Assembly: GCA_964016885.1 (NCBI GenBank)
Contig: OZ024745.1
Coordinates: 35,650,001 to 35,714,000 of the forward strand
DNA: 64,000 nucleotides
Origin: Eledone cirrhosa
Lineage: Eukaryota
Direction of reading: 5' to 3'
Below the pieces are notes generated by a model, which made no database searches, was not told the origin of the DNA, and saw nothing but the letters and a program-made list of their open reading frames with translations. Positions 17,468 through 51,999 of this stretch are shown piece by piece. The position numbers and the translations under genes were made by a program. Position 1 is the first letter of the stretch. Every line of letters starts with the position of its first letter.

Positions 17468-17642
17468 AGGAAAAGAGTCAGGACCCCGACGGCTCAGTTC
17501 CGAACTAGATCGAATTTAGCTGTAAAAACGGCCGGAGCTGAGCCGTCGGTGTCCTGACTTTTTTCCTATTACCCACTCTACTATCCTAAGTATCGAGTAC
17601 TCTTGTGCGTTATGGTCCACCTAATATCTTACCACACCTTTT
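17468..17642 (+). mobile_element. Family A fold-back module (diverged copy)
   Basis: aggaaaagagtcaggaccccgacggctc...gagccgtcggtgtcctgacttttttcct plus tail attacccactctact...; (TA)n on both sides. Confidence 0.7.
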
Positions 17643-20200
17643 ATATATATATATATATATACAGTCGCTATACAAAGAAAAATAGTCAGGTAGGGTTGAA
17701 CAATGAACCAAAACCCCAACCAAATCCCTATCTTCTCTAAAAAGTTACCTCCCCCACACCCTACCTAATCCTTTTTCTTATATAAATGAATTACCCCCTC
17801 TAATCTCTCTCTCACATACCCGGCCACCCTGAATCCCCCCCCCCTGCCTATGAACTCTCTAAAAAGGGAAATCATATCAAACCCCAAACTACCATTTGCC
17901 TCCATCATGGAACATCTAAGCACTCTTGTCATAATAACACATTTTGAACTGCTCATCTTCAAGAACTATGCTTGTAAATAATGTTATTCTTTCTTTCCCA
18001 TTACCTTTTTTTATGTTCCACATTACCCCCTTTTTTATTTTTTATTTTCACTTCAAAAACCTTGTTTGTAAATAACATTATTCTTTCTTCACCATTTCCT
18101 TAACATGTTCAACATCACCAACATTTTACACCAATACAAATTCTCCTCTTTTATAATGCATAAAATGCTGAAACCGGTAATAGACAATTATTAAATATAT
18201 AAATAAATAAATAAATGCCATTGTTAATTAATAAATAAATCAACTAATACCTTAACACTTCACACAAAGTAAAATATTTTGTTCTAAACATTTTCTAACC
18301 CAGAAAAAAAGAGAAAAAAATAAAAGGGAAAAAAAAATATTTTTCTTCCTAATAATCGTCTTTTTCTCCCTATTTTCATATATATATATATATATATAAA
18401 TATATATATATCTTTTCTGACTATCCTTTTCTGATGGTCACCTTACCACCATCTTTTCTGCTACAACTACTGATAGACTACCTTTTTATAAACACTTTAA
18501 ATTTAGTAACCAGCGAGGGAATCACTACAAATTAGCTTGACCTTTTCGAAATAATCAGCCAATCTCAAACCCTACCTTGTTCTAACAAATAATTTAGGCC
18601 TTTATGAATTCAGTTCACTATATATTATGTTTTAGAAAAAAAGAAATGGTGACAAAACTTTAGCTGGAATATATTTTTTCGAGTTTCAATTGGTGCTAAA
18701 GGACCACAACAATAACAATTACAACCGTAACAACAATACATTCTACTTATTTACAGACTTCTTATGCCACTTAAAACAAAGGGTCACCTTAAAATCTTTC
18801 TCTTCTCAGGTTTCATTTTGACATTTTTATCCATCAGAGTGTTGACTAAACAATCAATATCATTGCAATGTACTAAGGTAGTTGTTAAAGCGTATATCAT
18901 AAATACTTGCTTCTTTTATATTGAAATGTACATTTAATGTTGACAGACCTGCTGAATCAATAAATGTACTTAATGTATGACTTCAACATTACAATATCAA
19001 GTAAGCATATTTTCAGTTATCCCACAAATTTGAATATATGCAATCGTCATATATTAATGTCATTCGTGATCTTTTCGTCTTGTCGTGCCTGAACTACTGA
19101 TTGGGAATAATCATAAGATTTATGGGTTCAAAGATGTATAACATTCAGTCGAGTGAAGAAGTATAGTTCTGTTACTTAACATATCGACCTTGGAACAGTT
19201 TCTGTAATAGAACTGATACCGTTGGGATTTCATCTCATAACAGTAACAATGAGGCATTCAATTGAACGCAATAAATCATTTAGTCTAACATTCTAATGTT
19301 TATACTAAATTACGCACACATACAGTTAAACTTGAACTGCTGTTTAATCAATTTTTATATTCAAATAAAACAAAAGAATTTCTTCGCAGTCATTCTAGAG
19401 ACAAATTTACAATAGGTTTCCTGAGTCATTAACTCTTACTTATACACAATCAAGTCATTTATTATTTTATTTGTATTTAATTTTCAGTGGCAAGGAGCAG
19501 TAGAAAATATAACACAAAGATTTAAAGATGTTCAGTTTTGCCATCACAATGTTACCGTATGATTTATTGCAATTATACATGCATACACACACCTGGAGCA
19601 CACACACACTCACCCCTCTCTCTCACACGCACAGCCACACACACACACACACATACAGACACACATATATATATATATATCGATGTGTGGAGGTGTGAAT
19701 TTCAGGTTTTTATTCCGGTTATTTAGTCTGGTAATTTTTTCACTATCATTTATCTAATAATATAGTGCATCTCATCCTGACAACCTTCCGCATAATGTGT
19801 TGCTATTTCTAGACTAACCTTGCAACACATTCATCTATTGGCATGTTTTTCATGTAAGTTATAAATTAAAATCCCCAACCAGTCATTAGTTAAACGGGAA
19901 AGGTGAAGTCTGTCGGAAGTCCAGGCACTCATCACTTCGCACTGTTTAACATTTCACAAACATATAACGTGCTGGTTTCTAGCCATCAAACGCAAACACT
20001 CACACATACATAGAGCGAGTGTGTGTGAGAGAGAGAGATAGAGATAGAGAGAGAGCGGGGGGGATATTGAGAGAGAGTGAGATTGAGAGAGAGAGCGAGA
20101 GAGAGAGAGAGAGAGAGAGAGAGAGAGAGAGAGAGAGAGAGAGAGAGATAGCATATATCTATATCTCTATCTATCTATGGATATATAATATATATATATA

Positions 20201-20293
20201 ACGATGGAGGTGTGGTAAGGAACCAGATAGTTGATAACGCACCAGAGTACTCAGTACTTAGGGCAGTAGAGTGGGTAATAGGAAAATGTTTTC
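20201..20293 (-). mobile_element. Family A module, tail only (palindrome collapsed)
   Basis: Reverse complement of the family A tail, ending taataggaaaatgttttc. Confidence 0.7.
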
Positions 20294-21488
20294 ATATATA
20301 TATATATATATATATATATACGTCAAGACATCTACCCCTTAAAATATTTTGAATGATTAGCTAACATAAAGATATAAAAACATTTTCAGCTGATATAAAG
20401 ATATAATTCGGCTCAATAAACTCTTACTAGTTGATTGTTGAAGGCAGAAATCTGCTTCTTAAATGCAACACGTTAGCAGCAATACTTAACCTCCAATCTT
20501 CCAGACAACCTGTGCTAAAAGAGCTCAGCATAATAATATGTCAAGCGAAGTTTCTCTGAAGAAATAATACTATAACAATCGTGATACATATGGCAATTAA
20601 TGTGTGCCTCTTACAGCAATACCATATTCTATAATGTTTTGGCAACATTCCATAATGTATTTGTAATACCAATGCTATATCGGGATTTAGAGTACTTGAC
20701 AAATTTACAGCGGAAATCTGCTATTTAGGTGTTATTAACACCAGCAGATACTGTCATCAGCTGGATATTTCTATAGAAAATATGATATCGAAAGGCATTT
20801 GTTAAATAAAAAAAAAGAGAGAACAGAAACCAGCAAAAAAAAAAAATGATGCGAAAGATAAGTACATACAGACATTGAATATCGCTGCGTGGTGAAACTC
20901 ACAGACTATCTGCCAAATAACCACAACAAAATTACTAACTACACATCTTTAAAGGAACAGCATTTATATCAAGAGTGACGTTTCATAGTTTCATATATAT
21001 ATATATATATATATATATATATATATATATATATATATATATATATATATATATAAATATATATATATATATATATATATGAATATATATATATATATAT
21101 ATATATATATATATATATATATATATATATATATATATATATATATATATATATATATATAAATATATATATAAATATATATATATATATATATATATAT
21201 ATATATGAATATATATATATATATATTTTTTTTTTTTAGGAACGATCGACTTTCGTCAAATCGGACCGAGGGAACAGCGTTTCCGTTGGTCTTTCCAATT
21301 GCTAATACTATCTATCGGTCGCAACTCCAGGTAGAAGGAGCAACGTGAAATAAAGTGTCTTGCTCAAGGACATAACGGCTGTTTTATATGTATGTAAAAG
21401 GTAAACAGAAATAACAACACAATCGGTACAGTATATGGAAGGTATATATATATATATTAGGTTAACGCTTGATATAGCAGGAAGAGGG

Positions 21489-21525
21489 TCTTAACGTTTC
21501 GGACGCTAGTCCTTCATCAGAAGAA
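21489..21525 (-). ncRNA. Minimal hammerhead motif
   Basis: Minus: tctt-CTGATGA-a-ggac-tagc-gtcc-GAAA-cgtta-aga, in a module flanked by TA. Confidence 0.65.
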
Positions 21526-51002: not shown

Positions 51003-51308
51003 AGTAATAATAATAAATTCGAAGACTAAAATCCAAAGAGCGCTCGATATATGAAATATATAAGAACCGTTGCGTGTAATTGTTTTTCATCGCTCCAAAT
51101 AATGACGTATTATATTCGTTTTTTTTTCCCGTTCTTTGCCAGGGAACGTTTCCACGAGCCAAAGTATCGTCTTCCTGTCGTCCCCCAGTTGCAACGTCTT
51201 TGGAAATATTCACTTTTGCGTTCACAGATTGACTTTGTTAGTTTCAGAAGATCCCGTTAAGGGTGAAAGCAGCGATTCTTTGCTTAAACTTTAATCTATT
51301 ATTTTAAT
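51003..51308. mobile_element. Family B module (tail plus HHR-bearing arm)
   Basis: The tail gtaataataataaatt.gaaga.taaaatccaaagag.gctcg recurs at 26850-26897 and 41382-41425 and, reverse-complemented, at 6267-6309. The arm end recurs at 38420-38517 and 6168-6212. Confidence 0.6.
51240..51290 (+). ncRNA. Type I hammerhead motif with CAGAAGA core (family B)
   Basis: agttt-CAGAAGA-t-ccc-gttaa-ggg-t-GAAA-gca-gcgattctt-tgc-TT-aaact. All three helices pair. Second copy at 38451-38501. Confidence 0.55.
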
Positions 51309-51563
51309 AAATATATATATATATTTATATATATATATATATATATATATATATATATATATATATATATATATATATATATATATATATGAAAACAGGG
51401 AGAAAGAGACGATTATATATATATAAGCAGAAGGGATATTCAATATGTTTGTAATTCAACAAATATAAATGTTTATAACTGATTCAGAGAACTCGACATT
51501 TTTTCTGGAGCATAATATACAATGATATTAAATAAATGGAAACTATATTTATAAAACCATATT

Positions 51564-51624
51564 TATTCTATTATATATATTTCAGGGGTACCAAAAGTTT
51601 AGTACGCTATCATCAGATAAAATA
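51564..51624 (-). ncRNA. Minimal type I hammerhead motif (family C)
   Basis: Minus: tattttat-CTGATGA-tagcgtacta-aacttt-tggtacccct-GAAA-TATATA-TA-atagaata. Confidence 0.65.
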
Positions 51625-51873
51625 CGAAGTATGTTTCATAAAATGTTGACATAACCAAGGAGAATATACCTTAACGTTTCAAGTTTTCCTTGGATAGTAT
51701 ATATATATATATATATATATATATATACACACACATATATATATATATATATATATATATATATATATATACACACACATATATATATATATATATATAT
51801 ATATATATAAATATACATACACACACACACATATATATATATATATATATATATATATGTATATATATAGAGA

Positions 51874-51999
51874 GAAATAGCCCTCGAAACGGTTTCAGCT
51901 CTGCCGTCGGGGGTCATACATTTTCTTATTACCCACTGTACTACCCTAAGTATTGAGTACGTTATAGTCGATCTAGTTCCTTACCACAACTCCTTCGTT
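51874..51999 (+). mobile_element. Family A module without an inverted arm
   Basis: gaaatagccctcgaaacggtttcagctctgccgtcgggggtc plus tail. Confidence 0.7.

Follow-up and report, generated by a model that had tools for sequence, protein, structure and literature searches.

Head-to-head terminal repeats of a Hydra-type Penelope-like retrotransposon in Eledone cirrhosa, and their probable origin by double priming on one RNA

The window analysed here is a stretch of 64,000 nucleotides (nt) from Eledone cirrhosa (assembly GCA_964016885.1, contig OZ024745.1, positions 35,650,001 to 35,714,000 of the forward strand). Between positions 17468 and 52002 it holds ten loci of a repeat, family A, every one within (TA)n. 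The repeat is, on the evidence of its longer copies, the terminal repeat (pLTR) of a Penelope-like element (PLE), and many of the loci consist of two inverted arms joined head to head. Positions within the family are numbered from G12, the G of the hammerhead motif GAAA. Two 3' ends occur, one at +42, the end of stem I (short arms), and one at +124 (long arms). The loci, with one element of the ninth shown separately, are:

17468..17640, plus: old-subfamily head-to-head copy, short arm minus, long arm plus (-8 to ~+124), read against long copies of that subfamily
about 20197-20290, minus: collapsed copy, tail only (+36 to +124), without any hammerhead half
27359..27430, plus: short arm (-13 to +38) fused to the remnant of an inverted long arm
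33481..33631: head-to-head copy, minus long arm from +5, plus short arm from -15
44908..45080: head-to-head copy, ends -18/-18, minus short arm 44908-44967, plus long arm from -18 with an internal deletion (+3 to +34)
49402..49605: head-to-head copy, ends -18/-18, minus long arm 49402-49543, plus short arm from -18
49645..49760: head-to-head copy of a divergent subfamily, with a central deletion
50069..50244: head-to-head copy, minus short arm from -16, plus long arm from -12
50689..50885: head-to-head copy, minus short arm from -17, plus long arm from -12
50762..50792, plus: retained hammerhead 3' half, with GAAA, a 6-bp helix III with palindromic TGAGCTCA, the GUC site and the GGGGT strand of stem I
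51873..52002, plus: solo long arm from -13, abutting (TA)n directly

GAAA, helix III, GUC and GGGGU are present in at least one arm at nine of the ten loci. The first-pass annotation, made from the letters of the window, had credited all ten with this 3' half; the copy at about 20197-20290 begins only at +36 and lacks it entirely. Its statement that no copy keeps the 5' core holds, neither CTGANGA nor TTGANAA being found within 95 nt upstream in any of the 13 arms listed, as does its placing of the inversion centres about 10-20 nt upstream of GAAA, the arms of the four best copies ending at -12 to -18. In the two copies with both ends at -18, a single untemplated G lies at the joint. At 44968 it precedes the long arm on the plus strand, and long copies of that subfamily have T at -19; at 49544 it precedes the short arm on the plus strand, with the opposite polarity.

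The parent of these copies had been expected to carry a canonical CUGANGA core followed by GACGGCT. Genome-wide, a looser form of that pattern gave 31 matches, and none of the 30 inspected has CTGANGA and then GACGGCT; all are inserts at junctions, fragments of other PLE families or chance matches. The true upstream sequence, read from junctions among these matches, led to 807 longer copies of family A, which run into a frame for reverse transcriptase (RT) and GIY-YIG endonuclease. The frame lies on the strand already assigned to the pLTR with its hammerhead 3' half, so that this part of the earlier reading is borne out. As judged from its sequence, family A is the pLTR of a Hydra-type Penelope-like retrotransposon with RT and, C-terminally, a GIY-YIG domain.

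The parent protein is read from locus L303, which holds a 3,118-bp tandem unit containing a 786-codon open frame. The unit has a private deletion of 430 nt, which was considered as an intron and rejected; the usual family A unit is ~3.55 kb. The frame has the motifs RWR, DKT, YRDD, CxCX5C and GIY-YIG, and, read by eye, CxxC and CxH flank the endonuclease E and N. Atlas neighbours of the protein carry HTH_animal, GIY-YIG and RVT_1 at 0.96-0.99, and searches of Pfam and PDB with it returned no match. One open reading frame (ORF) carrying RT and C-terminal GIY-YIG, together with a pLTR in partial tandem, an inverted 5'-truncated copy and a tail at one end (L065, L303, L310), agrees with endonuclease-bearing (EN+) Penelope-like elements. 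By eye, the Hydra clade as described in PMC8557442 shares the RWK-like motif (RWR replacing RWK), DKT, the CxCX5C linker, CxxC and CxH around E and N, the (TA)n target, the inverted 5'-truncated copy and the one-ended tail. A Neptune-like reading of the linker was dropped, since that description of Hydra fits better. Family A differs from the clade as given there in unit length (~3.5 kb vs <3 kb), in its tail (82 nt vs 30-40 nt) and in its hammerhead, whose core is U3-A8, whose helix II is long and whose helix III measures 5-6 bp, where canonical hammerhead ribozymes (HHRs) were reported for Hydra. The clade has an entry in the supplement of the same paper, Hydra-1_Obim (2,507 bp, (TA)n, 'no pLTR').

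Long copies of family A read ACCCC - TTGANAA - G(N)TCGGCTATT - a loop of ~35 nt - TAGCCGTC - GAAA - CGGC..GCCG - TC - GGGGT. This is a complete predicted type I hammerhead with a U3-A8 core, UUGANAA, along with GAAA, an NUH site and three helices; the canonical C3-G8 core, CUGANGA 5' of stem II, was not found in family A. Because the parent core is UUGANAA, the check proposed earlier, which looked for an upstream CUGANGA in full-length copies, fails as written. The true 5' strand of stem II is G(T/C/A)TCGGCTATT, and the upstream GACGGCT of short copies belongs to the inverted arm only. One pattern alone recovers 3,416 long-copy arms with the full motif genome-wide. N7 depends on the subfamily (A or C, G, or T), and in an old subfamily (235 matches, to a pattern that left U3 to A8 unspecified) U3 is kept in 30/30, G5 in 26/30 and A8 in 29/30. 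Across 20 hand-picked long copies 91.9% of cells are paired, compared with at most 49.5% in slid controls, and both sides have changed at three pairs of stem II; these are few events, between two lineages, and the search pattern itself required one of the three. Minimum-energy folding gives the three-way junction in only one of four copies, and folding energy on its own thus lends the structure no support; the centroid fold of L063 does agree with it. In loop II of one subfamily a weak second hairpin is predicted. Rfam showed no hammerhead among the 150 listed of 313 window matches, and none at gathering score in four loci. Antisense CTGGTGA/CTGATGA near loop II was dropped after the ORF had fixed the strand. 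The short 3' end, +42, falls at the distal end predicted for stem I (e.g. L193:1460-1584).

Covariation at U3-A8, with C3 and G8 swapped, was already published for Schistosoma PLEs (PMC4209133). With the minimal U3-A8 hammerheads of Cercyon, family A has in common the core covariation, the location in a PLE pLTR, G10.1-C11.1, a 5' end of stem II with unpaired bases, a palindromic loop III and opposite-strand motif pairs. Helix III is stable in family A, while it is minimal in Cercyon, and the loop II of family A, at ~35 nt, appears to hold a start site. Non-LTR retrozymes consist of tandem short units, each with a whole HHR (10.64898/2026.07.22.740005); family A is not of this kind, since its short copies are dispersed, inverted and core-less.

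Genome-wide, 14,045 head-to-head copies of family A are found with exact 15-nt arms and a spacer of 0-60 nt, against 0 in the reversed control. That a fixed palindrome, a master resembling a miniature inverted-repeat transposable element (MITE), was copied whole to give them is highly improbable. The outer ends are fixed and one centre is common to two window copies, as such a master would predict, but the centres vary widely among 50 listed copies, and this diversity refutes it; both arms carry the same subfamily markers, and a parent with RT exists. Fixed terminal inverted repeats from one master, the mark of a MITE, were not found in family A. The earlier view that the palindromes are made anew is therefore upheld, and so is the expectation that a plot of inversion centres would be non-random, the ends piling up at -18.

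Among the first 30 of 23,002 arms reaching -18, 17 stop at -18 to -22 and 13 enter the 5' strand of stem II; none ends between -23 and ~-50. At -18 stands the A of a loop II motif, T(T/C)AGT, which resembles the general initiator consensus. The motif is kept at this position in all subfamilies, including the old one with an otherwise different loop, whose short copies are centred at about the same place as the others. Where two -18 arms flank a centre of one base, this base is G/C in 420 copies and A/T in 61. Most subfamilies have T in the genome at -19, so that a templated base would be A/T; among 30 sampled G/C centres, the marker of the sole subfamily in which -19 is C is absent from 27 and present in three. 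An extra G at a 5' end is the footprint of cap copying; a literature search on this footprint found nothing. That the 5' edge is a 3' splice site was considered and dropped, no recurrent upstream exon being seen at the centres. A drop in depth in the contigs of two sequencing runs (~20-fold by -25, then flat) was not counted as evidence, because contig depth is no copy number, upstream loops vary by subfamily and the run may be an assembly source.

The first-pass annotation had explained the centres by the ribozyme: RT would stall or fold at hammerhead stem II and self-prime, so that the fold sets the inversion point. The centres do lie just beyond stem II, and the weak second hairpin predicted in loop II of one subfamily, as well as one family B arm in the window that starts in its stem II loop (50420-50664), also agree with this. 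The arms, however, span the whole 3' strand of stem II and end ~7 nt past it, so this strand is already copied where they stop, and the gap between -23 and ~-50 and the common end point in different loops also speak against a stall. Two other PLE families serve as a control. Family E, with a U3-A8 motif, has 1,418 head-to-head copies with fixed centres ~40 nt upstream of its core, and the hammerhead is kept in 17 of 18 arms (long+short in 9/9 examined pairs); family D (C3-G8) has 146, with centres ~115 nt upstream of the core and hammerheads kept. The D and E patterns were aimed at centres already seen, and show recurrence rather than a full distribution. Evidently RT passes stem II, and the centre of the palindrome is family-specific. 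With the lack of polarity described next, this makes the stem II stall very unlikely: the feature is real, but the mechanism first given for it is mostly wrong.

Of 86 short pairs from all collected loci, many of them pattern-selected, 80 join a long to a short end, two are long+long and four have one unclassified end. Eight chosen for having both arms at -18 were left out of the polarity count; in 72 pairs the further-reaching arm is the long one in 26 cases and the short one in 30, with no difference in 16 (p 0.69). The extra G is likewise on the long arm in 12/30, on the short in 16/30 and on an unclassified arm in 2/30. In long insertions (23 scored of 32) the count is 9 long, 11 short and 3 equal, and the short-ended arm is more than 1 kb longer in 7 of the 23; nine were left out as lacking a partner (1), being short+short (1), having an unclassified end (2) or not aligning to the reference (5). 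Of the 41 arms that an evenly spaced sample of 1 Mb gave, 27 have an inverted partner, 7 are solo on (TA)n (short arms in 2 of the 41), 6 are of other kinds and 1 has the core. Subfamily markers agree between the two arms of a pair. Strict long+short pairing with matching markers suggests, from sequence, that one RNA was copied twice.

Under simple self-priming the long-ended arm should reach further in every pair, and the counts of 26 and 30 go against this. Since priming at +42 gives a cDNA that cannot serve as template for the tail, and priming at +124 one from which no longer partner can come, simple snap-back needs later deletions. A fuller version keeps the run-off at an RNA 5' end and lets a single cDNA snap back, with the endonuclease or TA microhomology resolving the second strand at +42 and later central deletions hiding the polarity. 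Arms matched by subfamily, short self-copied inserts at some centres (copies of the arm itself in L215, a sign of local snap-back), near-equal arms (ending within ~100 nt of each other) in 5/23 long pairs and an ATT motif at +42, a preference of PAc (PMC11167929), all accord with it; self-priming was proposed in PMC3846280, and the tail attributed to endonuclease resolution in PMC8557442. Yet the untemplated G is as frequent on the short as on the long arm (44968 and 49544 in the window are examples), the short-ended arm can be far longer, solo short arms exist, and arms of family A are joined head to head with those of another PLE family (L001, L013, L014). This route is considered unlikely.

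A further alternative concerns the end at -18, which may stem from RNA processing or an endonuclease cut in a DNA template instead of a transcription start, the extra C being ordinary terminal addition. Both 3' ends and the -18 end of T-type subfamilies lie at TpA steps, and PLEs retain introns, unspliced or antisense templates having been proposed (PMC3846280). The C-type subfamily and family E, however, end at CpA steps, the motif is initiator-like, an Inr-like TCACT was noted in a pLTR in the same source, and the -18 end lies 44 nt from the hammerhead cleavage site. An origin by processing or cutting is quite improbable.

The reading preferred here, with a probability of roughly 60%, is that the copies are 5'-truncated ends of a Hydra-type PLE, and that the palindromes arose by double priming at a (TA)n break on one RNA whose 5' end, probably capped, lies in loop II. 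PLE RTs are not known to have RNase H. The A of loop II's T(T/C)AGT would be the start of transcription from the pLTR promoter, and the transcript's 5' copy of the repeat would lack the 5' core and hence not self-cleave in cis. The endonuclease would cut both (TA)n strands; both break ends would prime RT at internal sites, +42 and +124, which lie just 60 and 142 nt from the 5' end of the RNA, and an RT without RNase H could copy the one RNA twice. Both cDNAs would run off the RNA 5' end, often adding C opposite a putative cap, and the joining of the two cDNA 3' ends would then involve trimming, microhomology or short inserts. Priming of read-through RNA in the 3' pLTR, or a jump there, would give the long copies. 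Under double priming, the loss of the 5' core is a by-product of promoter position.

Several points weigh against this reading. Start site, cap and cleavage are inferred steps, and RT is able to add C without a cap. Many arms extend 1-5 nt past -18, making the 5' end a cluster, and 4 of 50 listed centres reach ~-26 to -29. Where inserts are of at least 2 nt, the first non-A base is C in 14, G in 8 and T in 3 of 78 arm ends (tallied by eye), which means that C is favoured but not alone. Four tail-to-ORF copies all extend upstream past -18, and no full-length copy beginning at -18 was seen; all came from patterns requiring upstream sequence. The self-copied inserts and near-equal arms belong here too, and the symmetry of polarity may stem from later deletions at palindrome centres. 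The start sites of PAc were reported not to differ between strands (PMC11167929), so that assay leaves the strict long+short pairing unexplained.

Parts of the double-priming scheme have precedents. PAc, the Poseidon element of Anolis studied in vitro, cleaves and extends both target strands from two internal start sites (PMC11167929); family A shares with it two RT start sites 3' of the HHR that define the tail, the extension of both strands and the use of uncleaved RNA as template. In line with the last, no palindromes centred on the cleavage site were found for family A in 1.88 Mb of overlapping, family-enriched loci. PAc belongs to the Penelope/Poseidon clade, and in what was available of that paper head-to-head repeats are not derived from double priming. 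Penelope and Chlamys-3 have a transcription start site within the pLTR (PMC8557442).

In L1 twin priming an inversion results when the same RNA is also primed internally by the second target strand. The segments there do not overlap; in family A both cDNAs cover the same 60 nt, and a palindrome results.

The clade, the inverted pLTR, the U3-A8 core, the two RT start sites and the self-priming proposal are already in print. A self-priming origin of head-to-head PLE repeats was published as a proposal (PMC3846280), and the formation of tandem and inverted PLE repeats was named an open problem (PMC8557442). Double priming with run-off at a start site, as the cause of these repeats, was not found in the literature searched, which was mostly without subscription papers and available in part. 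As a tentative generalization, PLE head-to-head repeats may arise by double priming on one capped RNA, each family's centre marking its transcription start. It may also be, though this too is held with some doubt, that family A starts inside its hammerhead, so that the 5' copy cannot cleave and the 3' copy can. Short copies would then be abortive 'strong-stop' cDNAs, and the 44-nt overlap from start site to cleavage site could serve a jump to the 3' end in the way of a retroviral R region. With thousands of copies, countable footprints (long and short ends, no polarity, a sharp 5' edge, an extra G) favour a route other than self-priming. The likely double copying of one RNA would explain the long-puzzling head-to-head shape of PLEs and, if right, PLE start sites could be read from genomes alone. 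Searches with CUGANGA miss entire PLE families with U3-A8 cores.

The remaining features of the window belong to other families. Family E has two arms in it:

49810..50001, minus: family E arm, beginning at its own fixed 5' end AGATGTGAG, with the whole compact U3-A8 hammerhead motif
3654-3843, minus: second family E arm, U3-A8 hammerhead motif kept whole

The family B head-to-head copy at 50420-50664 has a canonical C3-G8 hammerhead in the arm opposite the one starting in the stem II loop. Further PLE-like families carry canonical hammerhead motifs at ~40026-40950, 24780-24925 and near 21500 (minus strand). Elsewhere in the genome, in L001, L008, L013 and L014, family A arms are joined head to head with family D arms that end at D's fixed 5' end. 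These joints came from a pattern favouring them, and suggest two different RNAs at one break. In the chimeras L009, L018 and L003 a family C sense strand changes to family A within the two stem II regions. An unrelated tandem repeat family has a third U3-A8 hammerhead motif (L105:6333, 0-based, plus strand), and the E. cirrhosa genome thus holds at least three distinct ones. At 41508-41664 the window contains a 157-bp near-perfect palindrome of another family, nested with internal repeats, and at 61000-64000 a long, G-skewed, GTA/GTG-rich tandem array with periods of 26-32 nt.

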